Below the pieces are notes generated by a model, which made no database searches, was not told the DNA's origin, and saw only the letters and a list, made by a program, of their open reading frames with translations. The position numbers and the translations under genes were made by a program. Below are positions 6,543 to 64,000 of a stretch of 64,000 nt of DNA, in pieces. Source of the DNA: an uncultured beta proteobacterium (GTDB taxonomy: Bacteria > Pseudomonadota > Gammaproteobacteria > Burkholderiales > SG8-39). Location of the stretch: NCBI GenBank assembly GCA_963747775.1, contig CAVVGT010000005.1, positions 3,148 through 67,147 on the forward strand, in the 5' to 3' direction. Position 1 is the stretch's first letter; the number at the start of each line of letters is the position of its first letter.

Positions 6543-8432
6543 CTAGTTCTGCAGCAGCTCGCCGACGCTCGCGGCGACCAGCCGTTCGTCCGCGTCATCG
6601 TACATGGACTCGACGAGCGTCCTGAACCGCTCGTACATCAGCGTGCGCTTCACCTTGCGCGTCGGTGTCACCGGCTCGCCTTCCTCCTCCGGATCGAGCG
6701 CCTTGGGCAGGATGCGAAAGCGCTTCACCTGCTCGACGCGCGCGAGCTCGGCGTTCGCGCGGTCGATCTCCCCCTGGAGCAGGCGCTCGACCGCCGGGTG
6801 CTGCGCGAGACTGGTGAAGCCGGTGTACGCGGCGCCGTGGGCGCGCGCCCAGTCGGACACGGTGTCGTAGTCGATCTCGATCAGCGCGGCGACGTACTTC
6901 CGGTTGTGGCCGAACACGACGACCTCGGCAACGTAGGGGCTCGCGCGCAGGGCGTTCTCGATGTAGGACGGCGACAGCGTCTTGCCGCCGGAGGTCACGA
7001 TGAAGTCGCGCGCGCGGTCGACGATCTTCAGGCGGCCGTCCGTCCACGCGCCGACGTCCCCCGTATGCAGCCACCCCTCCGCGTCGAGCACCGCATCGGT
7101 CGCTTCGCGATTGTTCCAGTAGCCCTCGAAGAGGTCGGGGCTCCGGACCAGGATCTCGTCTTCCGCGCCGAGCGTCACGTCCCAGCCCTCGGGCGCCGTG
7201 CCCACGTCGCCCGGGCGCGGAAACGGCCCGCGCTGGCCGGTGATGATGCCGCCCGCGGTCTCGGTCTGGCCGTAGATCTCGCACACGTTCACGCCCCAGA
7301 TGTGCCAGAGCGCCATCGTCTCGCGCGGCACCGCCGCGCCGCCGGCCAGCACGAGCTCGAGGCGATCGAGGCCGAGTTTGTTGAGGATCGGTGCGAACAC
7401 CGTCGCGCGCGCGAGGCGGTAGGCGAGGACGGAGGCCGTGCCCGCGGTGCCCTCCCAGCGCCGCTTGACATGCGCGCGCCCGATTCGCGCGGCGAGGTCG
7501 TACGCCGCACGCTTGATCGTCGCGGTACCCGAGATGCCCACGAGGACCTGGGAGGCGAACTTCTGCAGGTAGCGGGGCACGGCGAAGAGCACGCTCGGCG
7601 CCACCTCGAAGAAGGTCTGCGGCAGGTCCTCGAGGTCCTCGCCGAAGTGCGGCACGAGCTGCGATACGAGCGGCAGCGTGATCGCCACGTCGCGCCCGAG
7701 GATATGGCACAGCGGCAGGTAGATGACCGTGCGGTGGGTCTTCTCCGCGAGCGCCGGGTAGTGCGTCACGATGTTGAACGCGCCGGCGAGATGCCGGCCG
7801 TGCGAGACCAGCGCGCCTTTCGGGTGGCCGGTGGTGCCCGAGGTGTAGACGATGAACGCCGGCGCCTCCGCCGGCACGCGCGCCGCGAGCCGCTCGAGCG
7901 CTGCCGCCGGATCGGCCGCGGGTGTGGCGCCCTCGAGCAACTCGGCGTAGCTCTTCAGCTGCGGATGGTCGTAGGCGAACATCGCGGCGTCGTCGATCAC
8001 CACGATCCAGCGGACCGCAGGCAGGCGGTCGAGGAGCGGCAGCAGCCGGTCGACGTACTCCTGGTCCTCGGCGACGAAGATCGAGGCACCGCCGTCGCGC
8101 ATCTGGTACTCGACTTCGGCGGACGATGCGGTCGGGTAGATGCCGTAGGTCACCGCCCCGAGCGATTGCGCCGCGAGGTCGCAAGTCATCCACGCCTCGC
8201 ACGCGTCGCCCATGATCGCGACCCGATCGCCCGCTGTCACGCCGAGCCCGGCGAACCCGCGGGCGGCGCGCTCCACGAGGCTCGCATAGTCGCGCCAGGT
8301 GCGCTCGCGGTAGATCCCGAGGTGCTTCGAGCGGAACGCGACGGCGTCGGGGCTCGCCTGCGCGCGCTCGGCGAGGACGAGCGGCGCGCTCTTGCGGCGG
8401 AGAGAATTCGCGTCGAACGGGACCGGGCGCAT
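6543..8432 (-). CDS. AMP-dependent acyl-CoA synthetase/ligase (long-chain fatty acid-CoA ligase-like)
   Basis: AMP-binding motif IVYTSGTTGHPKGA and a later TGDVG.. motif. 629 aa. Confidence 0.9.
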   Translation of the reverse strand: MRPVPFDANSLRRKSAPLVLAERAQASPDAVAFRSKHLGIYRERTWRDYASLVERAARGFAGLGVTAGDRVAIMGDACEAWMTCDLAAQSLGAVTYGIYPTASSAEVEYQMRDGGASIFVAEDQEYVDRLLPLLDRLPAVRWIVVIDDAAMFAYDHPQLKSYAELLEGATPAADPAAALERLAARVPAEAPAFIVYTSGTTGHPKGALVSHGRHLAGAFNIVTHYPALAEKTHRTVIYLPLCHILGRDVAITLPLVSQLVPHFGEDLEDLPQTFFEVAPSVLFAVPRYLQKFASQVLVGISGTATIKRAAYDLAARIGRAHVKRRWEGTAGTASVLAYRLARATVFAPILNKLGLDRLELVLAGGAAVPRETMALWHIWGVNVCEIYGQTETAGGIITGQRGPFPRPGDVGTAPEGWDVTLGAEDEILVRSPDLFEGYWNNREATDAVLDAEGWLHTGDVGAWTDGRLKIVDRARDFIVTSGGKTLSPSYIENALRASPYVAEVVVFGHNRKYVAALIEIDYDTVSDWARAHGAAYTGFTSLAQHPAVERLLQGEIDRANAELARVEQVKRFRILPKALDPEEEGEPVTPTRKVKRTLMYERFRTLVESMYDDADERLVAASVGELLQN

Positions 8433-8515
8433 GGAGCGCGGCGAGTCTATCAGGGCGCACCGCGGGCCGGCGACGGCCGCGCTACCATCGCGCCTTCCCG
8501 CAAGCGAGGATCGCG

Positions 8516-9628
8516 ATGCGCATCTCCCCGAACGGCCGCCCGCCCTTCCGCGCCGACCACGTCGGCAGCCTGCTCCGGCCCGCGCCGCTGCGGCACGCCT
8601 TCAAGCGCCACGCCGAGAAGGCGATCTCCGACGCCGAGCTCGGACGGATCCAGGACGAGGCAATTCGCGACGTCGTCAAGCTGCAGGAGGCCTGCGGCCT
8701 CCAGGTCGTGACCGACGGCGAGTTCCGGCGCATCTCGTACTGGGCGCGGTTCGTGAGCCTGACCGACGGCCTGACCGTGAAGGAGGCGGCGTTCCGGTTC
8801 CGCGACGAGCACGGCCACGAGTCGGACTTCACCGCGCCGCACGTCGTCGGCAAGGTGAAGCGGAGCGGCGACATCGCGGTGGACGAGTTCCGGTTCGTCC
8901 AGGGGATCACGCAGGCGACCCCGAAGATCACGATGCCCGCGCCGTCGACGATGCACTTCTGGCGCGGCACGAATTACGCGGACCCGGGGATCTACGCCGA
9001 TCCGCGGCAGTTCATCGTCGACCTCGGCAAGGTCTACCAGGAGGAGATCGCGGCGCTGTCGGCGGCCGGGGCGCAGTACGTCCAGCTCGACGAGGTCGCG
9101 ATCGCGATGCTGTGCGACCCTGCGGCGCGCGAGCGGGTAAAGGCCGGCGGCAACGATCCGGAAGCGCTCGTCGACCTGTACGTCGACGCGATCAACGCGG
9201 CGGTGAAGAACCTGCCCGCCGGCATGGTGGTCGGCGTGCACATGTGCCGCGGCAACTACAAGGGCAAGTACCTCTCCGAGGGCGGCTACGATTCGATCGC
9301 GGAGAAGCTCTTCGGCCGCGCGAACGTCAACCACTTCCTGCTCGAGTACGACACGCCGCGCGCGGGCGATTTCGCGCCGCTGCGGTTCATGCCCAGGAAC
9401 AAGGGCGTGGTGCTCGGGATGGTGAGCTCGAAGGTCGCGACGCTCGAGCCGCTCGCGGCGCTGGAGCGGCGGGTGGAGGAGGCGGCCCTGCACGTCGACG
9501 GGGACCGTCTCGCGATCAGCCCGCAGTGCGGCTTTGCCAGCACCATCGGCGGCAATCCGGTCACCGAGGCCGACGAGGTTGCGAAGCTGAAGCGCTGCGT
9601 CGAGGCGGCGAGAGCGATCTGGGGCTGA
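8516..9628 (+). CDS. cobalamin-independent methionine synthase (MetE C-terminal domain-only) family protein
   Basis: 370-aa ORF with the typical start ..RADHVGSLLRP.. and CRGN.. / ISPQCGF metal-ligand regions. Confidence 0.75.
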   Translation: MRISPNGRPPFRADHVGSLLRPAPLRHAFKRHAEKAISDAELGRIQDEAIRDVVKLQEACGLQVVTDGEFRRISYWARFVSLTDGLTVKEAAFRFRDEHGHESDFTAPHVVGKVKRSGDIAVDEFRFVQGITQATPKITMPAPSTMHFWRGTNYADPGIYADPRQFIVDLGKVYQEEIAALSAAGAQYVQLDEVAIAMLCDPAARERVKAGGNDPEALVDLYVDAINAAVKNLPAGMVVGVHMCRGNYKGKYLSEGGYDSIAEKLFGRANVNHFLLEYDTPRAGDFAPLRFMPRNKGVVLGMVSSKVATLEPLAALERRVEEAALHVDGDRLAISPQCGFASTIGGNPVTEADEVAKLKRCVEAARAIWG

Positions 9629-10570: not shown

Positions 10571-12715
10571 GCCGGCTGCAGCCACCCGATCACCGTCGAA
10601 CGCGCGCGGTGCTTCAACCGGTCCCACCAGCTCGGGTTCTGCACGATCTCGGCGCGGAAGAAGCTCGGGCACAGGATCGCCGCGTGCGCCACCTCGCCGC
10701 AAAGGCCGCACCCGACGCAACTGTTGTTCACGTGCGCGACCGGGTCGACTTTGAGCGGGTCGGAGGAATCCTTCACCGTGAGCGACGGGCAGCCCGGACA
10801 GCCGGATGCACGAGTGGTCGCCCGAGCAGGTGTCCTCGTCCACGCCGAAGCGCGTGCGCACCACGCGACCGCCCGAGCTCAGCAGCTTCGCGAGCACCGG
10901 GCGGATGCGGCGCTGACGCTCGAGCTGGCACTCCGCCTCGGCAACGATCACCTTGAGGCCGGGCTCGGACGTGTTGAACGCGTCCTTCAGCGTCTGCGCC
11001 ATGTCGGACACCTTGTACGTGTAGACCGTCCGCAGCCACTTCACGCCCAGGCCCCGCAGCGTGTTCTCGATCGTCCGGTCGGCGTGGACGGCGCTCTGCT
11101 CGCGCGCCAGGTCCTTCGCGACTTCGGGCGGCGAGGAGACGATCTCCTGCGTGCCGGTCGCCGAGGTGTAGCCGTTCTTCATGATGACGAGCACGCCGTC
11201 GCCGCGGTTGAGCAGGTTGGAGGCGACGCCCGAGAGCAGGCCGTTGTGCCAGAACCCGCCGTCGCCCATGATCGACAGCGTGCGCCGTTCCATCGAGGGC
11301 CCGACGCCCGCCGCGCTCGCGAGGCTCATGCCGTAGCCGAGGATCGAGTTGCCCTGCGAGAAGGGCTCGAAGGTGGCGAACGCGTGGCAGCCGATGTCGG
11401 CGGCGACGTGCGGCTCGCCGATCTCGCGCTTCGCGAGCTTCATCGCCGCGAACACCGGGCGCTCCGGACAGCCGACGCAGAACGTCGGTGGGCGCGGCGG
11501 GAGCGGCTGGCCCAGGATCTCCGCGGCGCGGGCACGCGTTCCGTCCAGGGCTTCCAGCCAGCGCGCACCGGGCGACGTGTCGAGATGTGCGAGGTGCGCG
11601 GCGAGGAAGCGCGCGAACCCGCGGACGACGACTTCGGTCGTGTACTCGCCGGCCTGCACCAGCACGTCCTTGCCGTGAAGCTTCGTTTGAAGGTCCGCCC
11701 GGCGCAGGAGCGTAGCGATGTCCTGCTCGATGAACTCGGGCCGGCCTTCCTCGACGACCAGGACCGCGCGCTTGCCGGCGCAGAAGCCCGAGATCTCTTC
11801 CGGGACGAGCGGGTAGACGACGTTCAGCGCGAGGATCGGGATGCGGCAGACGCCGAAGTGGTCGGCGAGCCCGAGCACCTGCAGGGCGCGCACCACGTTG
11901 TTGTAGAGGCCGCCCTGGACGATGATCCCGACGTCGCGCTCGGATCCGTCGAAGACCTCGTTCAGCCGGTGCTCGGCGATGAACTTCCGCGCGGCGGGCA
12001 GGCGCACCTCGGCTTTGAGCTTCTCCTGCTTGAAGGTCGCCGGGGGATGCGAGAGCCGTTCGTACACGAAATCGGGCGGAGCGCTCAGGCGCAGCCGGGT
12101 CGACACGGCCGGCGCGCGGTTTGCGCGCGCGACGAAGCGCCCGGTGACGTGGCACGCACGGATGCGCAGGTCCATGAACACCGGCGTGTTCGACGCCTCG
12201 GAGAGCTCGAAGCCCTTCTCCACCAGGTTCACGATCATGGCGAGGTCGGGGCGCGGGTCGAGCATCCACAGCGAGGACTTGAGCGCGACCGCGTGCGTGC
12301 GCTCGAGCGCGACGCTCGCGCCCTCGCCGTAGTCCTCGCCGACCACGATCAGCGCACCGCCCACGACGCCCGCGGTGCTGAGGTAGGAGAGCGCGTCGGA
12401 GGCGACGTTGGTGCCGACGATCGACTTCCAGGTCACCGCGCCGCGCATCGGGTAGTTGATGGAAGCACCGAGCATCGCTGCGGCCGATGCCTCGTTGGTG
12501 CACGCTTCGACGTGCACGCCGAGCTCGTCCAGGTAGTCGCGCGCCTGCACCATGACGTCGAGCAGGTGCGACACCGGCGCACCCTGGTAGCCGCCGACGT
12601 ACGCCACGCCCGACTGCAGCAGGGCCTTCGTCACGGCGAGAATGCCCTCGCCGTGGAAGGTCTCGCCGTCGCCGAGCTTCAGGTTCTGGATCTCGTCGTG
12701 GAAGGAGACTTCCAT
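10567..12715 (-). pseudogene. iorA: indolepyruvate/2-oxoacid:ferredoxin oxidoreductase alpha subunit (IorA-like), copy 1, with +1 frameshift near 10792
   Basis: TPP motif GDGGFWHNG. Homology to copy 2 runs to ..DHSCIRLSG, then the frame turns R-rich. The conserved ferredoxin-type C-terminus (CVGCGLCGE..WLQPA) continues in ORF 10567..10776. One extra base relative to copy 2. Confidence 0.8.
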
Positions 12716-45548: not shown

Positions 45549-47144
45549 TCAACTCTTCAACGCTGCGGCAATCGACCGGATCGAGATTCCTTCGTTCGCG
45601 GCGTACGTGCCGTCCTTGCCGTTCAGCCGCGGCATGCCCATCTTGCCGCCCTTGTGGTGGAGCGCGATCACCTCCCAGAGCTTGGCGTTGAACACGGGGC
45701 TGCCCGAGCTTCCGCCTTCGGTGGGTGCGCGGTAGTGGAGGCGCCAGACGTCCGGGATCTGCGGCTTGCCCGCCGGCGGGCCCTCGTGATCGAGGAGCTC
45801 GTTGTCCTGGAACGAGAACGCGAGGTCGCGTCCGCCCGGATGGCCGATGATGTAGACGCGTGCCGTCGATTCCACCACCGGCAGCGCGGCGGCGACCGGC
45901 AGCGGCTCGATCCCCGTCACCGGGGTTTTCATGCGCAGCAGGCTCGCGTCATGGCGATCGGGCGGCGAGCTCCAGAGGAGCTCGCCGACGGCATAGGCGC
46001 GGTCCGCACCGGCGGCTTCGAAGACGACCTCCGCCGCGTCGGGCTGGATCCCCGGGCTCGCGCCATGCTCGTTGACGACGTGGAAATTGGTCAGGACCAG
46101 CAGCTCGTCCCTGGGCTCCCGGCCGAGGTCGCCGGCGCGCACCAGAAACCCCGTGCCGATCCGGCTGCCGAGTTGCGGGCGGATCGCGGCGACGGCGAGC
46201 GCGCGGTCGAGCCCGGTCTTCCACCAGCGGTACGTCTGCGGCCCCTCCGTGCCGAGCACCGCCTCGAGCTGCGATCGGTCCGGCGCCGGCGCTGTCCGCA
46301 AGCGCTGCAGCTCCGCACGCCCGAGCTCCAGTCCGCCGCCCGGCAGCGCCATGAGTCGCGCACGCAGGATGTTGACGAGGCCCCGGCCACGGTCATCGGT
46401 CTGTTCCAGGTCCCACACACCGGTGAACTGTCGTACGGTGCTCGCGATCTGAAACGCCTTGGCGTCGTCTGCAGCCGCATACGCCCGGACGTTGCGCTCG
46501 ACCGCGTCCCAGTCGCCCAGACCCAGCGAGGCTTCGGCCAGCGTCGGCAGATACCACTCGTCGCGCTGCTCTCTGGGCGTCGCCTCGAGCGTCGCAATCA
46601 CCTGCTGCGCGATGTCGCGGGGCTGAAGGTCCGCGGCGAGGCGCAGGCCCAGCCCGCGGGCGCGGGTGAGCAGCGCGATGAGGTTCACGCCGTGCCACGT
46701 GTTCGCGGCATGCTCCTCGAACGGCTTGCGATACGCGACGATCGCCTGCTTCAGCGCCTCGCGCGCGCCCGCGCTCGTCTTGTCGCCGGCATCGAAGAAG
46801 ATCTGCTTGTAGGCGCGGCCGAGCAGGCCCGTCGCCTCGGCCGCCTCGGGGTCGGTCTTCGGCAGCCGCTGGGCGAGCGGCCGCAGGAGATCGATCGCCG
46901 CGGTGGCCTTGCCGGTGTCGATCAGGTACTGCGCGTAGAGGCGGCGGTTCTTCGCGTCCTTCGGGTCCCGCCGGCTCACTGCCTCGGCGACCTGACCCAT
47001 GATCTCGTAGTCGCGGACGTTGCGCAGCGCCTCGACGAGCCGCTTGGCGCCGGCGAGATCCTCGACGCTCCCCAGCCCGCGCAGGTGCTGCAGCGCGTCT
47101 TTCGCGCGCTCGCGCAGCTCGTCGACGGTCGGCTCGGCGCTCAT
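45549..47144 (-). CDS. DUF4071 (TPR-like, MAP3K TRAF-binding-type) domain fused to C-terminal trypsin-like serine protease
   Basis: Start MSAEPTV within ORF 45549..48728. ..NTWHGVNLIALL.. is the DUF4071-type region. Protease triad context: NFHVV (His), DASLL (Asp), GGSSGSPV (Ser). Confidence 0.75.
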   Translation of the reverse strand: MSAEPTVDELRERAKDALQHLRGLGSVEDLAGAKRLVEALRNVRDYEIMGQVAEAVSRRDPKDAKNRRLYAQYLIDTGKATAAIDLLRPLAQRLPKTDPEAAEATGLLGRAYKQIFFDAGDKTSAGAREALKQAIVAYRKPFEEHAANTWHGVNLIALLTRARGLGLRLAADLQPRDIAQQVIATLEATPREQRDEWYLPTLAEASLGLGDWDAVERNVRAYAAADDAKAFQIASTVRQFTGVWDLEQTDDRGRGLVNILRARLMALPGGGLELGRAELQRLRTAPAPDRSQLEAVLGTEGPQTYRWWKTGLDRALAVAAIRPQLGSRIGTGFLVRAGDLGREPRDELLVLTNFHVVNEHGASPGIQPDAAEVVFEAAGADRAYAVGELLWSSPPDRHDASLLRMKTPVTGIEPLPVAAALPVVESTARVYIIGHPGGRDLAFSFQDNELLDHEGPPAGKPQIPDVWRLHYRAPTEGGSSGSPVFNAKLWEVIALHHKGGKMGMPRLNGKDGTYAANEGISIRSIAAALKS

Positions 47145-47155
47145 TGCGCCCGGCC

Positions 47156-48097
47156 TCAGAAGCGGAGCATTCGCCGCAGCGTGCTGGCGAAACTCTTCTG
47201 GCGCAGGTACTTCGTGATCGAGTGCCGCCACGCGCCGTCGTTCTGGACCGCGATGTCCTCGACCGCCGACTTGCCGCCTTTGCGGTAGTCGCTCGCGAGT
47301 ATGGGGTCGAACCCGCAGACGGGATCCAGCCGGTCGAACAGGTTGACCCAGTCGCCGGCGACCCGCTCGTGCGGGAACCCGTCCGCGCGACTCCAGCCCG
47401 GCTGCAGCTTGTCCTGGATCTCGTCGAGGCCGAGCGGGCTGCCGAGCGTGATGAATCCGTCCACCGCCGCGCAATCGGTGACTCGCTTGAGGCAGTCGTA
47501 GGCGATGACCGTGCCCATGCTGTGGGAGACGACGATGTGCGGTCGGGTGACTGCGGGCGCGCAGACCGCGTCCGCAAAACGCCGCCGGATCGTCTGCTGG
47601 ATGCGCACCGCGGGGGTGCGGCCCGGCGGTGCGAACTCCACGTCGAACAGGTAATGATGCACGTCGCTCAAGTACGCTTCGAGGACGCGTTTCTTGATGA
47701 ACCAGGGCAGCGGCACGCGCTCGAGCGCACCTTGCGGCGCTGCGGGCGCGGGGACGGGCGCGGCGGTCTCGAGCTCCGCGTCCGAGAGCGTCGTCATTTT
47801 CGCGCGCAGGGCCGCGATGAACGCCGCCTCCTCCGCGCTCTGCGGCCGGGGGGGCGAGGCGTTCCCGCCGCCATCGATCGCCGCGGCGCTGTTCTCGAGC
47901 ACGCCTTCGTAGGCCGTGAGGTCGTCCTCCGGCTTCGCGTAGAGGAGATCGGCCCAGTAGACCAGCGAGCTGCTCACGCCGAGATCGCCCAAGGGCAGCG
48001 GCTCGGCGGCCTCCGCCAGGGCGTCCCGCCAGATGCGCAGGAGATCGTCCGCCGGCGGCTTGTTCGCGATTCCGTGAATGAAGGTGACGTGCGGCAT
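47156..48097 (-). CDS. alpha/beta hydrolase (lipase/esterase-like), no signal peptide
   Basis: VTFIHGI.. and nucleophile elbow VSHSMGT (GxSxG). 313 aa. Confidence 0.65.
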   Translation of the reverse strand: MPHVTFIHGIANKPPADDLLRIWRDALAEAAEPLPLGDLGVSSSLVYWADLLYAKPEDDLTAYEGVLENSAAAIDGGGNASPPRPQSAEEAAFIAALRAKMTTLSDAELETAAPVPAPAAPQGALERVPLPWFIKKRVLEAYLSDVHHYLFDVEFAPPGRTPAVRIQQTIRRRFADAVCAPAVTRPHIVVSHSMGTVIAYDCLKRVTDCAAVDGFITLGSPLGLDEIQDKLQPGWSRADGFPHERVAGDWVNLFDRLDPVCGFDPILASDYRKGGKSAVEDIAVQNDGAWRHSITKYLRQKSFASTLRRMLRF

Positions 48098-48157
48098 GGT
48101 GCGCTTCCCCTCGTGGGTGTCGAAGCAGTCGGTCTTCGGGCGGCGACGGGCCGATTC

Positions 48158-48772
48158 CTAGAAGTCGTAGGTCGGGTCTTCGCCCAGGTCTGGAATCCTC
48201 GCGACGTAGCCGGTCGCGCCGAAGTCCAGCGGGATGGCTGCCTCGTACCCGGGGAGGCCGACCTCCTTGCGCAGCGCGTTGAGCCGGTTCATCCAGCCTT
48301 TCAGGAAGACCGCGAGGTCCGGGTTCTGCCGGGCGAGACGACGGTAATAGGCCTCGCGCGCGTCGCAGTAGGCCGCGATTCCCCGGCCGATGTCGCAGGC
48401 TGCGGCCGCTCGCTCCGTCTGCGGCCCGAAGTCGCCGTCCACGCCGCATCCGACCGCCGACTGCAGGAACCGCACTGCGCGCCCGACCCCCATGTTGACC
48501 GCGGTATCGAACTGCACGAGATCGAGTTGCTGCCGCAGGAGATCGCATCGCGGCGGCAGCCAATAGCCGCTCTCGTAGATCGCCTGCACTTCGCGGTCCT
48601 CGATCAGCTTGACGTCCCGCCGGGCGAATTGCTGCCGCGCGCGCCACGCATCGTAGACCTTCTGCGTCACGCCCTTGTTCGTCCGTCCGCCCGGATCGGC
48701 GGGATGATCTACAAAACCGCCCTCCCACCGCAGAATGAAGGGCAGCGAGCGCTCGAAGGCGGGGGACGGCAT
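48158..48772 (-). CDS. glycoside hydrolase family 108 muramidase with C-terminal peptidoglycan-binding domain, no signal peptide
   Basis: ..FILRWEGGFVDHPADPGGRTNKGVTQ.. (GH108 catalytic region) and ..VDGDFGPQT.. (PG-binding). Start MPSPAF within ORF 48158..49081. Confidence 0.75.
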   Translation of the reverse strand: MPSPAFERSLPFILRWEGGFVDHPADPGGRTNKGVTQKVYDAWRARQQFARRDVKLIEDREVQAIYESGYWLPPRCDLLRQQLDLVQFDTAVNMGVGRAVRFLQSAVGCGVDGDFGPQTERAAAACDIGRGIAAYCDAREAYYRRLARQNPDLAVFLKGWMNRLNALRKEVGLPGYEAAIPLDFGATGYVARIPDLGEDPTYDF

Positions 48773-49008: not shown

Positions 49009-49767
49009 ATGAGAAAGACTTTGGCAGCATCCGCGCGCGACTACGTCCTGAAGCTGGACCTTCCCTTTGCGCCGCCCGCATTCGAGGCGGTGACCGCGAT
49101 GGCGTTTTCGGACCAGCGCGAGGCGGTCGCCGTCGGTGCGCAGCTCGCGGAGTTCACCCCTGCGGTGCCGGCCGGCGTGCGCGGCGCCATCGCCGACAGC
49201 ATCCTGCTCGCGCAGCTCGCCGCCAACAAGGTCACCACCCAGACGGAGGACGTCTTCCGCTGGTACGACAAGTACATCGAGGTGCTCCAGAACATCGGCT
49301 GGCAGGTCCGGGACCTCGATTTCCAGGCGCAGCAGGTGAGCGACCAGGACGCCTGGGTGCACAAGGAGATCATCCCGGTGCTCGCGCTGCTGCTCGGGCC
49401 GCAGGCCGCGGCCGCCTCGATCGTGATCGCGGTGCTGAACGGTCTCCAGAATATGGATTCGAGCTCCCCCTGGATCACGCTCTTCGACCAGTCGAGCCAG
49501 CACGCGCGCGGCGCGAAGTTCCAAGTGAGCTACGTCGATGCCGACGCGCAGGGATCCCCGGAGATCTCGCTCCTCTGCTTCGGCATCCAGGCGGACCGGA
49601 CCATCACGCAGGTGCTGTTCTTCAAGACCTCCGCGCAGAGCGCCGAGGTGAAGAAGGCCTCGGCCAAGCTGGCCGTCAGCATGGAGCGCCTGAACTCGGC
49701 GAAGGACGCCCTTGCCGGCCGCGTGCAGCCCTTCATTGCGGACTACGTGAAGAACATCGACATCTGA
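49009..49767 (+). CDS. hypothetical 252-aa protein (no family recognised), first gene of the plus-strand unit
   Basis: MRKTLAASARDYVLKLDLPF.. with a GGAGGG RBS. One hydrophobic segment (IIPVLALLLGPQAAAASIVIAVL). 14 nt upstream of the next gene. Confidence 0.55.
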   Translation: MRKTLAASARDYVLKLDLPFAPPAFEAVTAMAFSDQREAVAVGAQLAEFTPAVPAGVRGAIADSILLAQLAANKVTTQTEDVFRWYDKYIEVLQNIGWQVRDLDFQAQQVSDQDAWVHKEIIPVLALLLGPQAAAASIVIAVLNGLQNMDSSSPWITLFDQSSQHARGAKFQVSYVDADAQGSPEISLLCFGIQADRTITQVLFFKTSAQSAEVKKASAKLAVSMERLNSAKDALAGRVQPFIADYVKNIDI

Positions 49768-49781
49768 GGCGCGGGCCGCGC

Positions 49782-51736
49782 ATGAAGCCGCACGCCTTCA
49801 TCGCCATGCCGTTCGGCACCAAGCCCGGCCACGACGGGCAGCCGATCGATTTCGACCGGGTGTACGCGGAACTGATCAAGCCCGCGCTGGAGGCGGCGGG
49901 CTGGGAGGTGTTCCGGGCCGATGAGGAGCTCCGCGCCGGCGACATCCGCATCGACATGTTCCAGGAGCTGCTGGTCGCCGACCTGGTGGTCGCCGATTTG
50001 ACGCTGAACAACCCCAACGTCTGGTACGAGCTCGGCGTGCGCCACGCGCTGCGCGCACGGGGCGTGGTGCTCGTGCAAGGGCCGCGTCCGACCCAGCCGT
50101 TCGACATCTACACCGACCGCAAGCTGAACTACCGGCTGAAGGACGGCGCGCCCGACGCCGCGCACGTGCAGGCCGATCGCGACGTGCTGGCCGCCATGGC
50201 GCGCGCCACGCTGGAGGCGGCCACCGCGCGGCCGGTCAGCCCCGTCTATGCGCTGCTCGATCACCTGCGCGAGCCCACGTGGCGGGAGCTGCTGCTCGCC
50301 GAGCGAAACGAGTTCAGCCAGGCCTATGAAGCGTGGCGCAGTCGCATGGAGATCGCGCGGCAGAAGAACCGGCCGGGCGACATCCTGGTGCTTGCGGATG
50401 AGACGCCCACCCGCGCGCTGTGGCTGGAGGCCAAGCGCGCCGCGGCGAACGGCCTGCTCAAACTGAGGCAGTTCGATTTTGCCCTGGAGCAGTTCGAGGC
50501 CGCGCTGGCGATCGACCCCGACGACAAGCCGAGCCGCGAGAAGAAGGCGGTGTGCCTCGGCCGCCTCGGCCGTTACGAGGAAGCGCGCGAGTGGACGCGC
50601 CAGCTGACCGATGACTATCCGCGGGACGCCGAGGCCTGGGCGTTGGCCGGCCGCGTCGAGAAGGACGACTGGATCAGCCGCTGGCGGCGCGCCGGCGACA
50701 CGCCGGCGCAGATGCGGGCTGCGGCCGCGGCCGAGGAGGCGAGCCTGCGGGAGGCGATCGAGCCGTACCACAAGGCCTTCATCACCGATCCAAGCCACTA
50801 CTTTTCCGGCATCAACTCCCTCACGCTGCACGTGCTGCAAAAGCACCTGGGGGGCGCACCGGACGCGACCGTCGTCGACAACCTGATCGGCGGCGTGCTC
50901 TGGGCCAGCCTGACCGCTCAGAAGCGCGACCCCAAGGACTACTGGGCGCGCGCGAGCTACGCGGAGCTCTGCCTGCTCGTGAATCCGAAGGAAGCCGTGA
51001 TCCGCGAGTTCCGCGCCGCGGTGGCCGCGGCCAATCGCGACTGGTTCGCGCTCGATTCCACGCTCCAGACGTTGAAGCTGTTGCGCGACCTGGAGTTTCG
51101 CCCCGATGAAACCGGCGCGGCGCTGGAGATCGTGGAGCGCGAAATCGCTCGCGCGAACCCGCCGTTCCTGCCGCGGCAGGTGCTCCTGTTCTCCGGCCAC
51201 ATGGTCGACGCGCCCGGACCGCGCGATGCCGCGCTTTCCGGCCGACAAGGAGCCGGTCGCCGCGCAGAAGATCGCCGCGGCGCTCGATCAGCTCGGTGCG
51301 GGCGCGGGCGACCTCGCCCTGACGCAAGGCGCGGCCGGCGGCGACCTGCTGTTCGTCGAAGCCTGCCTGCAGCGCGGCGTGCGCTGCATGCTGCTGTTCC
51401 CCTTCGAGGAACCCAAGTTCATCGAGGAGTCCCTGCTGGCGTCCAAGGACGGCGAGCGCTGGCGCGAGCGCTACTTCGCGGTCAAGGCGCAACTGAAGGA
51501 CGCGCCGCGCGATCATGCCGGCCGAGCTGGGGCCGCTGCCGAAGGGCGCCAGCGCGTACGAGCGCTGCAACCTGTGGCTGCTGTACACCGCGCTCGCATG
51601 GGGCGTGGACAAGGTGCGCTTCGTCTGCCTGTGGAACGGCGGCGGCGGCGATGGCCCCGGCGGGACCGCGCACATGTACAACGAGGTCAAGCGCCGGACC
51701 GGGCGGGTCACCTGGATCGACACCCGGAAGCTGTAG
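49782..51736 (+). pseudogene. TIR/nucleoside-deoxyribosyltransferase-like N-domain - DUF4071 (TPR-like) - C-terminal Rossmann-like domain protein, interrupted by two +1 frameshifts (~51213 and ~51510)
   Basis: Frame 0: MKPHAFIAMPFG..HYFSGINSLTLHVL..LLFSGHMVDAPG. It continues in ORF 51106..51744 (..PRFPADKEP..TQGAAGGDLLFVEAC..) and then ORF 51515..51736 (MPAELGPLPKG..CLWNGGGGDGPGGTAHM..). Confidence 0.65.
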
Positions 51737-51740
51737 GCAG

Positions 51741-53465
51741 CTAACGGCCGGACGCCGCGTGCGGCGCCGGAGTCGCCGCGTCGGCAGCGCGCGCCGGGCG
51801 CGGCGCGACCGCGTCGAGCAGCGTCGCCATCAGGCCGCGGATCTCGGCGGCGGTGCTGCGCTCCACCGCGAGCAGGCGCGCGGTCGGCGCCGGCGAGCGG
51901 CGGTTGGGCGTGCCGGGCCCGACCGCCGACCAGAGCACGCGCAGCGTCGCCTCGAGGAAACCGCGATCGGTGGTGCCGTCGACCACGAATACCACGCGTG
52001 CGAGCTCGATCGCCTGGAGCAGCTCGCCGAGCTCATACACGCAGCCGCGGTTGGCGGGCGCGAAGCTGCGCAGGTCCATCAGGACGACGTCGCTCTCCTC
52101 GACGAGCCGGTGCATCGTCATCTGCCAGGTGTCGGCGTGGCAGAAGAACTCGTTCACGCGATAGCGGCCGTCGGGGTCGCGCTCCTGGTCGATCGCCGCG
52201 ATCCGCCGCTCGAGGTCGGGGCGGCCGGTGACGAAGCGCCCGGCGAGCTCGCCGCTCGCGAACTCGAGGAACTCGTGCGGCTCCACGGTGCTCGTGACGA
52301 GATCCGGGCCGGCGATCATCGACACGCTCCCGAGGCGCAGCCAGTGCGCGCGCAGCACGTCGAAGAACCGTTCCGAGCGGCTGCCGAGCGCGAAAACGCG
52401 AAGCAGCAGAAGCCGGCGTGGTGCCGGCGCCGGGCGGCGCCGCAGCAATGCGAAGGCGACGATCGTCGCGAGCTTGTAGGCGAGGAACGCGGCGAGCCCC
52501 GTCGCCGCCCAGGTCGCGCCTTCGAAGGCGAAGGCGACGGACTGGCTGATGCCGAAGAACAGGAACACCGTATCGATCGTGAGCGATTGGTCGGAGAGCC
52601 GCTTGCGCTGGTAGCGCCGCCCGAGCCGGCGCAGCACGATCCAGCCGCCGAGGGCGAAGAGCGCGAAGCCGGACACGAGCGTGTACACGAAGATCTCCGT
52701 GCCGCCGAGGCCGAGGAGCGCGCCGGCCTCGACCGCCGCGCGCATCCGGTCGTCGCTTGCGCCCACCACTTTGAGCGCGAGCAAGCTGCCGCCCAGGGCC
52801 AGAACGGCGAAGGTCACGACCAGGGGTCCGACGGCGCGGATCGGACGGGCAAGAAAGAGAAAGAGCAGCGCAGTCTCCGCGCCGTTGGTGATGACCCAGA
52901 AGACCGCCGGATCGTACCAACGGAGATCCGGGCTGCGCGCGAGCGCGATGGCCGCAAGCAGCGCGAACACGCCGCCGTATGCGCCGAGCAGCTTGAGGCG
53001 CGCTGCGCGCGTCGTGCCGGCCACGATTCCGGCCGCGATGACCGCCGGCCAAAGGAAAGTCCAGAAGAACGTCGCGAGCTTCACCGGCCCGACGCCTGCG
53101 TCGACGGTGAAAACGGTCCACGGCACCGACATCACGCAGGCGTACGCCGCCCCGCCGAGACCGTAGATGGCCGCGGCGTGCCAGGGTCCGCGCATCACGT
53201 CCCGGATCCCGGGTGCTTCATCCGCGGCGGAGCGTGCGTCGGCGAACGCGATCTTCAGCGCGTTGGCCGGTCCCGCCGCCGCCGTGCGCACTTTAGCCGT
53301 CGCGTCCCCGCCGCGCGCGGCGGTGTTCATCGACCGCAGCACCGCGCGGCGGTACAGCCGCAGCAGCAGCAGCGAGACGGGAAGCGCGAGGAGCGCGCCG
53401 CCGAGCAGCACCGACGGCAGTTCGCCCGTGATCGCGAGCGTCGTGGGGTCCGTCGTCGCGCTCAT
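51741..53465 (-). CDS. 574-aa polytopic membrane protein (about 10 TM) with ~220-aa cytoplasmic-type C-terminal domain
   Basis: Start MSATTDP overlaps the TIR gene stop (ATGA). There are many hydrophobic helices. The C-terminal ..LLLLRVFALGSRSERFF..VVLMDLRSF..VVFVVDGTTD.. suggests an alpha/beta domain. No family recognised. Confidence 0.6.
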   Translation of the reverse strand: MSATTDPTTLAITGELPSVLLGGALLALPVSLLLLRLYRRAVLRSMNTAARGGDATAKVRTAAAGPANALKIAFADARSAADEAPGIRDVMRGPWHAAAIYGLGGAAYACVMSVPWTVFTVDAGVGPVKLATFFWTFLWPAVIAAGIVAGTTRAARLKLLGAYGGVFALLAAIALARSPDLRWYDPAVFWVITNGAETALLFLFLARPIRAVGPLVVTFAVLALGGSLLALKVVGASDDRMRAAVEAGALLGLGGTEIFVYTLVSGFALFALGGWIVLRRLGRRYQRKRLSDQSLTIDTVFLFFGISQSVAFAFEGATWAATGLAAFLAYKLATIVAFALLRRRPAPAPRRLLLLRVFALGSRSERFFDVLRAHWLRLGSVSMIAGPDLVTSTVEPHEFLEFASGELAGRFVTGRPDLERRIAAIDQERDPDGRYRVNEFFCHADTWQMTMHRLVEESDVVLMDLRSFAPANRGCVYELGELLQAIELARVVFVVDGTTDRGFLEATLRVLWSAVGPGTPNRRSPAPTARLLAVERSTAAEIRGLMATLLDAVAPRPARAADAATPAPHAASGR

Positions 53466-55018
53466 CGGGCGAGCGTGAAATCCACGAGCTCGAAGGTGGC
53501 GAGCTCCTGCGGCACGTTGCGCTCGTAGGTGCGCGCGTCGACCTTGACGAAGCGCTTCGCCGCGGGCGCATACCAGAGGGTGACGATCGAGTGCAGCGGG
53601 ATGCGGTTGATGAACGTGCTCCCGCGCCCTTCGGCCACGACCTTGATCGCATCGAACGTGCCGGCCGGCACGGTCACCTGCTCGCGCCCCGCGATCCGCA
53701 TCGCCATCTCGATGGTGGCATCGGAGGAGAGCTGGCGCTTCACCGTGGGCAGCGACGCGCCGTCGTCGAGTCGGTAGAACGCCTGCAGGTAGGGCGCGAG
53801 ATCGGGCGGCGCGTATTCGAGACCAGAGTGGCCGGAAAAGCGTGGCTCGCGCGCGACCACGATTCGGCTCTGGTAGTCGGGGCGGTTCGACACGCGCAGC
53901 AATTCGCCGACGCCGGCCTCGCTCACCGTGTCGACCCGGTAGGTCATCCGGGCGACCTCGGCACGGCGGAAGCCGTCGACGTAGCGATAGGTCCAGGTGT
54001 CGCCCGGCGCGGGCATCAGCGGCGGGCGCGCCGCGACGGCGACCTTCGGCGGTGCAGGCTCGGCGGCCGGAGGCTTCTGGGCCTCCGCGGCCGGTGCCGC
54101 GGGCGCGGGGGCGGGCGGCGCGATGGCGGCCTGCGGTGCGGGCGGCGCGACCGGTTTCGGCTGCGCCTTGGGCGCCTGCCGCCGCTTCTCCTCGTCGGCC
54201 TTCCGCGCGGCCTCCGCGGCGGCGCGCGCGCGCTCGGACTCGGCCTGCGCGATGCGCCGCTGGTCTTCCCGACGCTGGTCTTCCTCCTGCGCGCGGCGCG
54301 CGGACTCGGCCTCCGTCGCCCGAGCCTTCTCGTCGATGCTCCGTTGCTTCGCATCGAGCTCGGCCTGGCGCTTTGCGGCCGTCTCCTCGGTGCGGCGGCG
54401 CGCCTCGTCGAATGCTCTCTGCCGCGAGTCCAGCTCGACGGCGCGGCGGTCGACGTCGTCGAAGTAGCGCATGACCCCGAAGGTGCCGGCGGCGACGATT
54501 GCAACGCCGAGGACGGCCGGAACGAGCCGGCGCAACCACATCCGCCAGTCGGCGCCCGCCGTGCCGCGCTCGACGCGGATCGCCGCCAGCGTCTGCGGCG
54601 GCGTGACCCCGGGCGTGAGCAACGCCCTCAGGTCGGAGACGAGCTGGCGGAAGCCGGGCGAGGTCTGGTCGCCGTGGTAGCCGACGAGGTTGGCGGCGTG
54701 GATACTGCGAAAGCCCATGGGCGGCTCGACCGCGTCGATCAGCACCGGCACGAGGATGCCGCGCTCGAGCCCTTCGTTCGCCTCGTCGCGGACCCAGCGC
54801 GAGGTGATCGAGGCTTTCGACCACAGCACCAGGACGCAGTCCGACTTCTTGATCTCGGACTCGATGACGCCGGCGAAGGTCTTGCCGGCCTGCAGCTTGT
54901 GGTCCCACCACACCGCCCACCCCAGCGCCTCGAGATCGGCCGCGATCTCGCGCGCGCGGTCGCGGTCCTCGCTGGCGTAGCTGAGGAAGATGCGAGGCAC
55001 GACCGCGCCGCCGGTCAA
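53462..55018 (-). CDS. TIR domain protein with TM helix, charged coiled-coil, Pro/Ala-rich linker and C-terminal beta-rich domain
   Basis: RIFLSYASEDRDRAREIAADLEALGWAVWWD..CVLVLWSKASITSRWVRDEA (TIR, conserved Glu ~aa 79). TM LVPAVLGVAIVAAGTFGVM (aa ~165-183). Confidence 0.8.
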   Translation of the reverse strand: MTGGAVVPRIFLSYASEDRDRAREIAADLEALGWAVWWDHKLQAGKTFAGVIESEIKKSDCVLVLWSKASITSRWVRDEANEGLERGILVPVLIDAVEPPMGFRSIHAANLVGYHGDQTSPGFRQLVSDLRALLTPGVTPPQTLAAIRVERGTAGADWRMWLRRLVPAVLGVAIVAAGTFGVMRYFDDVDRRAVELDSRQRAFDEARRRTEETAAKRQAELDAKQRSIDEKARATEAESARRAQEEDQRREDQRRIAQAESERARAAAEAARKADEEKRRQAPKAQPKPVAPPAPQAAIAPPAPAPAAPAAEAQKPPAAEPAPPKVAVAARPPLMPAPGDTWTYRYVDGFRRAEVARMTYRVDTVSEAGVGELLRVSNRPDYQSRIVVAREPRFSGHSGLEYAPPDLAPYLQAFYRLDDGASLPTVKRQLSSDATIEMAMRIAGREQVTVPAGTFDAIKVVAEGRGSTFINRIPLHSIVTLWYAPAAKRFVKVDARTYERNVPQELATFELVDFTLAR

Positions 55019-62287: not shown

Positions 62288-64000
62288 TCACAGCGTCGCG
62301 AGGAAGGCGATAAGGGCCTTCTTGTCGGTTTCGGGCAGATCCTCGCCGAAGGTGTGGCCGTCGTTCTCGACGTCGGCGGTGCAGCTCGAGTAGAACTCGA
62401 CGAGCTTGCGGTGCTGGCGCATCGTCTCGATCGGCCGGTCGGGGGCCTTGCGCAGCTCCGCCGCGACCGACTGCAGCTCGGTGGCCAGCGCCTTCGCCTC
62501 GTCGGCGCCGAACTGCTTGGCGAGACGGCCGCTCAGCGCGTCGGGCCGCAGCTTCAGCTCGAGGAGGTCGCGCACGAACGCCTTGTGGTCGAAGTTCCCG
62601 AGGCTGGCGGAGTTCATCCCCTTCGGCAGCACGACGGTCATCCCGACCAGCTGCTTCTCCTTGCCGTCCTCCACGGTCCGCAGGCCCACCGGCAGCGGTA
62701 CGTCGACGTCGAAGCGGGTGATCTTCGGGACGCGCTTGCCGGGGTTCAGCAGCTCCTCCATCGACGTGACGAAGAGCTTGAACCGGCCGTCGACGCTCGG
62801 GTCGTACGGCCAGCAGGCCGGGGCCTTCTCCGCCGGGAGGGTTTCCTTCGTCTGCCGGTCGACGTACGGCGAGCGGTAGAACTGGTTCTCGGCGTTCTTC
62901 GGCTGGCCACAGATCTCCGGTCCCATGGCGTTGTTGTGCATGAACGGCGCGTGGGCCCACAAGCTGACGAGCGAGAGGTTGCGGTAGTAGCTGCGCCCGC
63001 CGTCGGCCGGCTCCTTCACGTTCGGGTCGGCGGGGCGCGCCCGCAGCGTCTCGGAACCGTACTCCTGCCACACGTGGCCGCGCCATGTGGTTCGAGTGCA
63101 GTGCGCGGCAGCGGTACGTGCCGACTCCGCTGACGAGCGTCGCCTGGTCGTTGCCGAGCCAGTCGCGCCGCAGGCCGGTCTTCTCGTCGAGCGCGCGGAA
63201 GTCGCGGTTCTTGAACGCGCCGCCCTGCGCCTCGGAGACGCTCGAGTGGCAGCGCGCGCAGGTGGCCGCGAACACCTCGCGCCCGCGCGCGACCGCGTCG
63301 GCGCCGAACTGCCGGTCTAGCTCGGCGACCAGGTTGTCCTGCGTGTAGGAGGCATTGGCGCCCTTCGCCTTCAGCTCGTTGTGGCGCGCGACCGCGAGAT
63401 CGGTCGCGTGGTTCTCGTTGGAGAACAGGAACGCGGCGATGTCGGGCAGGCGGTCCTCGATCGCGCGGAAGTTGGGGCAGTCGCGACGGCACTGGCCGAT
63501 GTCGAACGGCGACTGGCCGAAGTTGCGCGCCTGCGGGTCGAGCTGGCGCAGGTCCGTCAGGTGGTTGACCCAGCACTGCTCGGAGCACGAGCCGATGTTG
63601 AAGTACACGCGCTGGATGGCCTCCAGCGCGCCGATCGAGTCCTCGCCGCCCTTGAGGATGTGGTGCACCGTCTCCTTGGCGCGCGACTGCAGCCAGCACT
63701 TGCCGTCGCGGCCGGGCTCGCACCAGCACTTCGTGCCCGCGGCCGGCGTCGCGGAACACGCCGCGACCTTGCGCCACTTGATGACGTCCTCGTCGGGAAA
63801 CGTCGGGCGCTGGTGCAGGTTGATGAGCGCGTTGATGGTGCCCGGGTTGCTGACGCGGTCGGTCGGGATCGCCGAAGTGTCGGACGTCCCGGGGCGCGCG
63901 TGCGAGAACACCTGGTACTCGAGCGACGCGTAGGGCATTCCGGAGCCGAGCAGCTCGGAGATGCGCAGATACTGGTTGCCGATCGCGCCCTTAAGGTTCT
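62288..64000 (-). pseudogene. cytochrome c peroxidase/MauG-like haem protein, 5' end beyond the window, +1 frameshift near 63078
   Basis: CARCH haem motif, ..WAHAPFMHNN.. (compare the CCP APYFHDG region) and CCP-like C-terminus GHTFGEDL..ALIAFLATL. The upstream part is in the frame of ORF 61365..63938 and the downstream part in ORF 62288..63073. Confidence 0.6.

Follow-up and report, generated by a model that had tools for sequence, protein, structure and literature searches.

Is a gene that can be read only through two frameshifts decaying in its host, recoded during translation, or intact in nature and broken in the assembly, and what protein does it encode? We addressed this question for a gene on a 64,000-nucleotide stretch of DNA from an uncultured beta proteobacterium (GenBank assembly GCA_963747775.1, contig CAVVGT010000005.1, positions 3,148 to 67,147 of the forward strand). 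This stretch is referred to below as the window; its G+C content is about 70%. The gene (49782-51736, plus strand) is readable only as three successive frames and gives 650 residues once both shifts are read through, as in its relatives. A gene for a 252-residue protein ends 14 bases before its ATG at 49782. The initial annotation had called the pair a divergent two-gene unit; the two genes are co-directional, and divergent only relative to a minus-strand GH108 operon. Our results indicate that the 650-residue gene is probably intact in nature, its frameshifts being single-base insertion errors and not decay, and that it encodes an immune-type protein composed of a head like that of ThsI (an effector of type VIII Thoeris), a TPR-S middle and a SLOG tail.

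Origin of the two frameshifts

The gene is laid out in the window as follows:
49782..51215, plus strand: segment 1, frame 0, codons 1-478, ending ..PRQVLLFSGHMVDAP (..LLFSGHMVDAP)
51216..51216, plus strand: first extra base (CCCGGAC, where intact orthologs have CCCGAC), in the invariant SGHxxDxxxRxxxRFP motif
51217..51510, plus strand: segment 2, frame +1, 98 codons, DRAMPRFPADKEP..LTQGAAGGDLLFVEA..LKDAPR, including TQGAAGGDLLF
51508..51511, plus strand: second extra base, within CGCG, placed by alignment at 51510
51512..51736, plus strand: segment 3, frame +2, 74 codons and the TAG stop at 51734-51736, IMPAELGPLPKG..LWNGGGGDGPGGTAHMYNEV..TRKL, starting IMPAELGPL

Segment 1 encodes the N-terminal domain (N-domain) and the TPR-S region and extends into the SLOG domain as far as its first strand and motif. 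The middle of that domain, including its GAAGGD loop, is segment 2, and its end is segment 3, which contains LWNGGGGDGPGGT. All motifs quoted in the initial annotation are present in the gene. The G+C content at third codon positions (GC3), taken for each frame on its own side of the shift points, is 0.89-0.97 (0.93-0.97 in the shifted frames), so that all three pieces look coding.

Alignment to intact homologs, which had been proposed as a check, gave a clear result. An ortholog in a genome of the same genus (G005:C32:367569-369518; 93% protein identity) reads uninterrupted and lacks both extra bases. The two genes are 92.7% identical in nucleotide sequence, and their lengths differ only by two single extra bases in the window, exactly the two +1 shifts that had been annotated. 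At the first of these sites the window has GCGCCCGGACC where the ortholog has GCGCCC-GACC. A second intact ortholog, 55% identical, was found in a genome from another family of the same order (G055). The architecture has thousands of further homologs: at least 2,669 were found at an expectation value (E) of 1e-3 among the candidates scored. The top 120 listed are all 71-93% identical to the window protein, and most of them are 642-656 residues long. Named homologs come from Accumulibacter, Rubrivivax, Nitrospira and Porticoccaceae and are labelled only as 'TPR repeat', 'DUF4071' or 'TRAFs-binding domain' proteins.

These relatives bear on one explanation of the shifts, namely that they are programmed +1 recoding sites that set the amount of SLOG domain made. 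In its favour, the two shifts are alike in direction (+1) and are followed by open frames. However, a single frame suffices to read orthologs that are 55-93% identical, as well as most homologs among the top 120 listed, no slippery motif is common to the two sites, and identical events strike unrelated genes, including rpoB. Programmed frameshifting was rejected because orthologs read straight through, and we consider it extremely improbable.

We then examined single-base differences by aligning the whole 423-kb contig of the sister genome G005 to the source genome (G000), of which 294 kb aligned at 88-97% identity. A strict gap penalty left 440 gaps over this length, 339 of them one base long. 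A frame-breaking event was defined as a 1-base-pair event where exactly one of the two genomes keeps a coding-like open reading frame (ORF) across the site. Such events were distributed as follows:
Source genome broken: 22 isolated and 86 clustered events, 87 of 108 (about 80%) being insertions
Sister genome broken: 24 isolated and 26 clustered events, 44 of 50 being insertions

Bacterial mutation is biased toward deletions. Together with an insertion bias that is symmetric in both genomes, this indicates a technical cause. Within the window, two unrelated minus-strand genes have also lost their frame, each through a single base that the sister genome lacks: an indolepyruvate-ferredoxin-oxidoreductase-like gene at 10797 and a member of a haem-enzyme cluster at 63081. 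At two window sites the insertion lies in CCCGGAC, at another two in CCGCGC; among the 22 isolated events in the source genome no common context was seen, and homopolymer extensions account for only 5.

Essential genes of the same assembly carry the argument further. Its sole rpoB (G000:C14:258570-262704) is broken into seven or more frame pieces and has in-frame stops; of the dnaE-family copies, one (C4:258939-261982) is in six or more pieces and another in two. As the organism could not live with such an rpoB, the assembly demonstrably holds indel errors. The ortholog of the 650-residue gene in a third genome of the genus (L004, G002:C4:189392-191345) contains four 1-base-pair insertions (codons 138, 274, 285 and 534), and the window gene shares none of these. 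Separately, we observed extra fragmented gyrA and secA copies (G000:C16:4152-6737; C17:8534-10315) beside intact copies elsewhere, which suggests that the fragmented copies are collapsed strain or haplotype fragments in the bin.

The competing explanation is that the shifts are real and that the 650-residue gene has recently become a pseudogene in this strain. The two extra bases are present in the assembled sequence, the first of them, which lies in the most conserved SLOG motif, would destroy the domain, and defence genes are often lost or inactivated. Set against this are the fragmentation of the sole rpoB, the dense and insertion-biased frame-breaking events in both sister assemblies, and the four different insertions in the third genome. 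In addition, no further lesions or stops were seen in the true frames of the gene, and GC3 is high in all three frames. The ratio of nonsynonymous to synonymous substitution rates (dN/dS) relative to the sister gene is 0.19 over the whole gene, with values of 0.36 for segment 2 (97 codons) and 0.04 for segment 3 (76 codons), and neither dN/dS nor GC3 gave any sign of relaxed constraint after the first shift. Inactivation of the gene is thus quite unlikely in our judgement.

Two findings count against an assembly artefact: the errors are patchy, with rpoC, ileS, fusA and one copy each of gyrA and secA intact, and no intact same-strain copy was found, the best protein matches being 93% identical. 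The initial annotation had offered decay and assembly indels as alternatives. The state of rpoB, the indel bias between sister genomes, the insertions in the third genome and the dN/dS values favour the latter, and sequence comparison makes it very probable that both shifts are artefacts of an error-prone, probably long-read, metagenome assembly. This reading removes the most eye-catching part of the finding. It also carries a practical lesson: with the source assembly and at least two sister assemblies full of 1-base-pair insertions, 'broken' genes in them need reads before decay or recoding is read from them.

Domains of the 650-residue protein

Read through both extra bases, the protein divides into three regions:
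49782..50306, plus strand: N-domain, NDT fold, residues 1 to ~175 (AlphaFold2, predicted local distance difference test (pLDDT) 84; Foldseek; PADLOC; ThsI BLASTP)
50439..51110, plus strand: TPR-S / MAP3K_TRAF_bd (DUF4071) repeats, residues ~220-443 (Pfam PF20308, E 7e-20; PF13281, E 1e-9)
51168..51733, plus strand: SLOG-superfamily C-terminal domain (C-domain), nearest YpsA, residues ~463-650, spanning both shifts (AlphaFold2 and Foldseek)

A module resembling TIR domains and nucleoside deoxyribosyltransferases (NDT) had been proposed for the N terminus, and the comparisons of fold and profile agree with it. In the Foldseek search with the N-domain model, the top match was TIR-STING 9lmq (E 8e-5). 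MilB (4jem/4ohr), human DNPH1 and BcmB were matched to E 1e-3, and the SARM1 TIR domain was also found. MilB and BcmB are cytidine monophosphate (CMP) N-glycosidases. The PADLOC TIR effector model PDLC00733 matches the N-domain as well (E 3.8e-6). Glutamate E83 of the YELG motif, a putative counterpart of the catalytic glutamate that the NDT/DNPH1/TIR families carry in the helix following strand 4, is found in the window copy, in ThsI and in 20 of 25 family members.

The assignment of this gene as a second DUF4071 protein beside the trypsin fusion (45549-47144) holds, as PF20308 and PF13281 were found in both. Both models score above their gathering thresholds in the window protein, the PF13281 match reaching 38.4 bits against a cut-off of 24.1 and covering model positions 210-355 of 371. 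The TPR-S regions of the two proteins are 31% identical. Several TPR-S-carrying proteins, two or three, recur together in single loci, and the proposal that the shared DUF4071/TPR-S region may be a common recruitment or sensing domain fits this repeated co-occurrence. Only generic TPR proteins were matched when a full-length profile of the family was compared with the PDB.

We modelled the C-domain with AlphaFold2 from the intact ortholog together with 31 diverse homologs (pLDDT 92.9, predicted template modelling score 0.90). It had been described as Rossmann-like and possibly nucleotide-binding or nucleotide-processing, and its fold, a Rossmannoid alpha/beta arrangement in three layers, is that of the SLOG superfamily: the best Foldseek match is YpsA 2nx2 (E 2e-5, probability 1.00, template modelling score 0.52/0.61). 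Further fold matches include DprA, the Moco carrier protein, ShosA, YgdH, TM1055 and the MHR of TRPM7, all of them SLOG-superfamily proteins (PMC9503650). Burroughs et al. reportedly classed them in this way in 2015. The invariant motifs of the domain are FSGHxxDxxxRxxxRFP, GAxGGD and LWDGxxGDGPGGT. H34, D37, R41 and R45 of the first are invariant, as are, across 32 diverse members, G80 and D82 of the glycine-rich loop GAxGGD and G187 of the loop GDGPGGT. Such nucleotide-binding loops, following strand 1/2 and preceding the final helix, are a feature of SLOG domains.

Sequence models add little to this fold assignment. Nothing significant was found when the C-domain was compared with Pfam and PDB sequence profiles, no curated sequence model covering it was matched, and PF10686 (YAcAr) was matched weakly by 5 of the 32 members (best E 0.046). 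With its own invariant N-terminal motif and no significant profile match, the C-domain looks like an undescribed or unmodelled SLOG family. It is mobile, with 2,539 cluster representatives, and occurs standalone (~195 residues) or after TPR-S; there it also follows ParA-like, AAA_35 plus TIR, patatin or protein-kinase heads. One standalone SLOG protein (192 residues, 48% identical to the C-domain) lies directly after an nSTAND1 NTPase (L020, 10235-10813), in a locus that also holds a 252-residue-family gene, a trypsin-TPR-S gene and a TIR gene.

Two things follow for annotation. A very large unnamed family, carried under 'TPR' or 'DUF4071' labels, is linked to ThsI, a recently validated effector of type VIII Thoeris; and a mobile, highly conserved SLOG-type C-domain without a curated model is defined.

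Neighbouring genes and candidate partners

The genes on either side of the 650-residue gene are the following:
45549..48772, minus strand: neighbour module of GH108 muramidase, 313-residue hydrolase-like protein and TPR-S-trypsin protease (Pfam and neighbourhood comparison)
49009..49767, plus strand: gene for the 252-residue protein, ATG at 49009 and stop at 49767 (ORF list)
51741..53465, minus strand: 574-residue multi-pass membrane protein, convergent with the 650-residue gene
53462..55018, minus strand: 518-residue TIR_2 protein, a candidate signal generator (Pfam TIR_2, E 1.8e-24; PADLOC ThsB-like matches)

The sister genome G005 is fully syntenic with the window: nSTAND1/TIR, DUF4062, TPR-S-trypsin, the 313-residue hydrolase-like protein, GH108, the 252-residue protein, the 650-residue protein, the convergent 574-residue membrane protein and TIR. 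Six further loci, five of them outside the genus, have a member of the 650-residue family with other neighbours or none:
L013 (Nitrospira): SLATT_3 protein directly upstream; caspase, patatin and CHAT downstream
L015 (Accumulibacter): 1,977-residue CHAT-TPR-S gene overlapping the start of the 656-residue family gene by 4 nucleotides
L017: 650-residue family gene with pYEATS, caspase, CHAT-TPR-S, TIR and trypsin-TPR-S
L016: 650-residue family gene without a recognisable partner
L018: 651-residue family gene; the sole recognisable partner is a downstream homolog of the 574-residue membrane protein (8369-9291)
G699: 650-residue family gene with patatin and a 930-residue TIR protein

Genes for TIR proteins lie near the 650-residue family in the window, L017 and L093. 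They also lie near related modules, in L019/L020 (252-residue protein with trypsin-TPR-S) and in L096 (ThsI-like gene).

The 252-residue protein, called unknown in the initial annotation, belongs to a conserved family without detectable relatives: it has no match in Pfam, PADLOC, NCBIfam or PDB profiles, and its 494 homologs of about 250 residues are all unnamed. It has one hydrophobic stretch (residues 120-146). The family is rare, being present in 5 of 401 genomes of the order, and distant homologs at 23-25% identity occur in L047-L049.

Could the 252-residue and 650-residue proteins form a dedicated two-gene sensor/effector unit, as the initial annotation implied? The two genes are co-directional with a 14-nucleotide gap in both the window and the sister genome, and in Nitrospira a small SLATT_3 protein takes the equivalent upstream position. 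Outside the genus the two families part company. The 252-residue family (53-61% identity) adjoins the pair of hydrolase and trypsin-TPR-S genes, without any 650-residue gene, in L019, L020/21 and L022/23, and five contexts of the 650-residue family lack a 252-residue homolog. A dedicated unit is therefore very doubtful. The 252-residue gene is probably co-transcribed with the 650-residue gene here. By evolution, since it accompanies the hydrolase/trypsin pair in three lineages without a 650-residue gene, it belongs to the hydrolase/trypsin-TPR-S protease module, probably as a fourth component; in L014, too, it lies near that pair. As to its role, we can only speculate that it might be a protease substrate or a pro-toxin.

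The 574-residue membrane protein is a better candidate partner of N-domain/TPR-S proteins than the 252-residue gene. Its stop codon and that of the 650-residue gene are 4 nucleotides apart (51734-51743), leaving no room for a terminator there, and the coding region of the 518-residue TIR_2 protein overlaps the start of its gene. A homolog with 44% identity (E 3e-127; L095, G593:C28, 10960-12657) immediately precedes a ThsI-like gene in a distant genome. The same island also holds homologs of the 313-residue hydrolase-like protein and of the trypsin-TPR-S protease, indicating that the membrane, hydrolase and trypsin-TPR-S modules travel together. Among 400 sampled genomes of the class, the membrane family lies within 6 kb of an N-domain homolog in two of the five other genomes that have it. 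Its cytoplasmic C-terminal domain (window 51744-52433, minus strand), which in G767 is also a separate 252-residue ORF, contains ..SDVVLMDLRSFAPANRGCVYELG.., resembling ..ADLVVADLTLNNPNVWYELG.. of the N-domain. A TIR/DrHyd-like nature of this domain, on the basis of the shared ..DVVLMDL..N.GC.YELG.., was rejected as unsupported: the hhalign probability was 11% when one sequence was used and 3% for a profile of seven, 27 residues being aligned.

Proposed mechanism and comparison with known systems

The type VIII Thoeris system has been validated: on infection, the TIR protein ThsB makes canonical cyclic ADP-ribose (cADPR), which activates the effector ThsI (bioRxiv 10.64898/2025.12.03.692087). 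ThsI, described as 'CMP hydrolase and TPR', is a toxic effector on cADPR addition, and a part for TPR in TIR signalling had been predicted by Burroughs and Aravind (2020), as cited there (bioRxiv 10.64898/2025.12.03.692087). Some YpsA-like SLOG domains sense cADPR, and a single clade of nucleotide-binding and nucleotide-processing domains comprises TIR, DrHyd and SLOG (PMC9503650).

By analogy, the 650-residue protein could be a nucleotide-signal-gated N-glycosidase effector, a variant of ThsI with SLOG, inside a TIR/TPR-S defence island; we put this at close to an even chance. On infection, a nearby TIR protein would make a messenger derived from ADP-ribose or another nucleotide. Candidate sources are the TIR module of the nSTAND1 protein and the 518-residue TIR protein, which lies two genes away. 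Binding of the messenger would fall to the SLOG domain, to TPR-S or to both. The 650-residue protein would then change state or oligomerise, possibly with other TPR-S proteins such as the trypsin fusion, and its N-domain would cleave N-glycosidic bonds of nucleotides or of nicotinamide adenine dinucleotide (NAD+), as proposed for ThsI, so that the phage is starved or the cell arrested. Ligand binding by SLOG or TPR-S and catalysis by the N-domain are thus predicted functions.

Several observations do not sit easily with such an effector. No ThsB-type TIR gene adjoins the 650-residue gene in the window, and no TIR gene was found within the 6-8 kb flanks of the family gene in L013, L015, L016 or L018; L013 and L015 have peptidases but no TIR. 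Catalysis by the N-domain must be squared with E83 being kept in only about 80% of the family. ThsA, the SLOG-containing effector of type I Thoeris, was not among the top 50 fold matches of the C-domain.

The peptidase genes in these loci point to a different role, in which the protein is not an effector and serves as a signal processor or as a TPR-S adaptor for co-encoded peptidases. The SLOG domain (as a LOG-like N-glycosidase) or the N-domain would make or destroy the messenger, and TPR-S would recruit trypsin, CHAT and caspase fusions. TPR-S peptidases are indeed the commonest neighbours, with caspase, CHAT or trypsin genes in L013, L014 and L017 and the CHAT-TPR-S gene that overlaps the 656-residue gene by 4 nucleotides in Accumulibacter. 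SLOG enzymes exist (LOG, PpnN/YgdH) and figure among the fold matches, and H34, D37, R41 and R45 are invariant, as expected of a catalytic or phosphate-binding site. Behind TPR-S with patatin, kinase, ParA-like or AAA_35 plus TIR heads, the C-domain looks like a constant regulatory module. Nevertheless, ThsI, which has the same N-domain and TPR-S, acts as a toxic effector on cADPR addition (bioRxiv 10.64898/2025.12.03.692087), and some members of the 650-residue family stand alone with no peptidase nearby. We regard the processor or adaptor role as unlikely, if a serious contender.

If the effector reading is followed, a more specific proposal can be made, which we offer as tentative and somewhat doubtful in its full form. 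'ThsI plus SLOG' would be an uncharacterised Thoeris-like effector class, where the YpsA-like SLOG domain, and not TPR-S, receives a TIR-made cADPR-type messenger and switches on a ThsI-type N-glycosidase. The window would hold a three-gene variant with a membrane-anchored TIR protein and the 574-residue membrane protein, with possible TPR-S cross-talk with the trypsin/hydrolase/252-residue module. If the SLOG domain is the messenger receptor, this would explain how ThsI-like heads are gated, and would give a testable handle on many TPR-S islands combining proteases, TIR and membrane proteins.

How does the protein compare with known systems? The two Pfam models found in its middle are those of the TPR-S conflict systems and of the N-terminal regulatory region of ASK1 (MAP3K5). 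TPR-S conflict systems, with the ASK1 N-terminal region, were reportedly treated by Burroughs and Aravind in 2020. Unlike ASK1, the window protein has no kinase domain; its match is limited to model positions 210-355, and the top 50 fold matches of the N-domain include no chain of ASK1, for whose N terminus a DrHyd-like nature has reportedly been claimed. With YpsA and the SLOG superfamily the C-domain shares its fold and the glycine-rich loops GAxGGD and GDGPGGT, to which it adds the invariant FSGHxxDxxxRxxxRFP of its own.

Type I Thoeris (ThsA, SIR2-SLOG) and type IX Thoeris (a 'TIR and SLOG' effector) likewise have an effector head joined to SLOG. It is through its SLOG domain that ThsA receives TIR-made 3'cADPR (bioRxiv 10.64898/2025.12.03.692087; PMC9503650). 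Whereas ThsA has a SIR2 head, the window protein has a DrHyd/TIR-like head, with TPR-S between head and SLOG.

For ThsI, we used as reference the validated Pseudomonas scaffold Ga0265295_1000171, found via the TIR sequence from Table S1 of the preprint, with ThsI at L070:3748-4986. About 3 kb downstream of this validated pair, a second N-domain homolog (281 residues, no TPR-S) lies beside a SIR2_2 gene (L070, 7049-8818), with adenosine deaminase and Ham1-family genes in between.

The N-domains of ThsI and the window protein are homologous (BLASTP, 36% identity over 165 residues, E 9e-27, including ..DLVVAD..NPN..YELGVRHA..). In both, TPR-S follows (PF20308, E 1.8e-26 in ThsI against 7e-20 in the window protein) with similarity to MAP3K_TRAF_bd, although the TPR regions are too diverged from each other for BLAST, and both proteins are found in TIR-containing defence loci. 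SLOG-less relatives of 442-473 residues from other Gammaproteobacteria, which are 30-36% identical over residues 1-455, form a separate group. Such ThsI-like relatives match nearly the whole of MAP3K_TRAF_bd (positions 1-355 of 371, E 1e-50), and one is followed by a TIR gene. ThsI itself, at 412 residues, ends after TPR-S and is directly followed by a 134-residue ThsB_TIR gene, whereas no ThsB adjoins the window gene, the closest TIR being the convergent 518-residue TIR_2 protein two genes away, and the 650-residue protein extends into an added SLOG domain of ~190 residues. Given these two differences, the window protein is a variant, and not a member, of ThsI: its ThsI-like head and TPR-S are extended by a SLOG tail.

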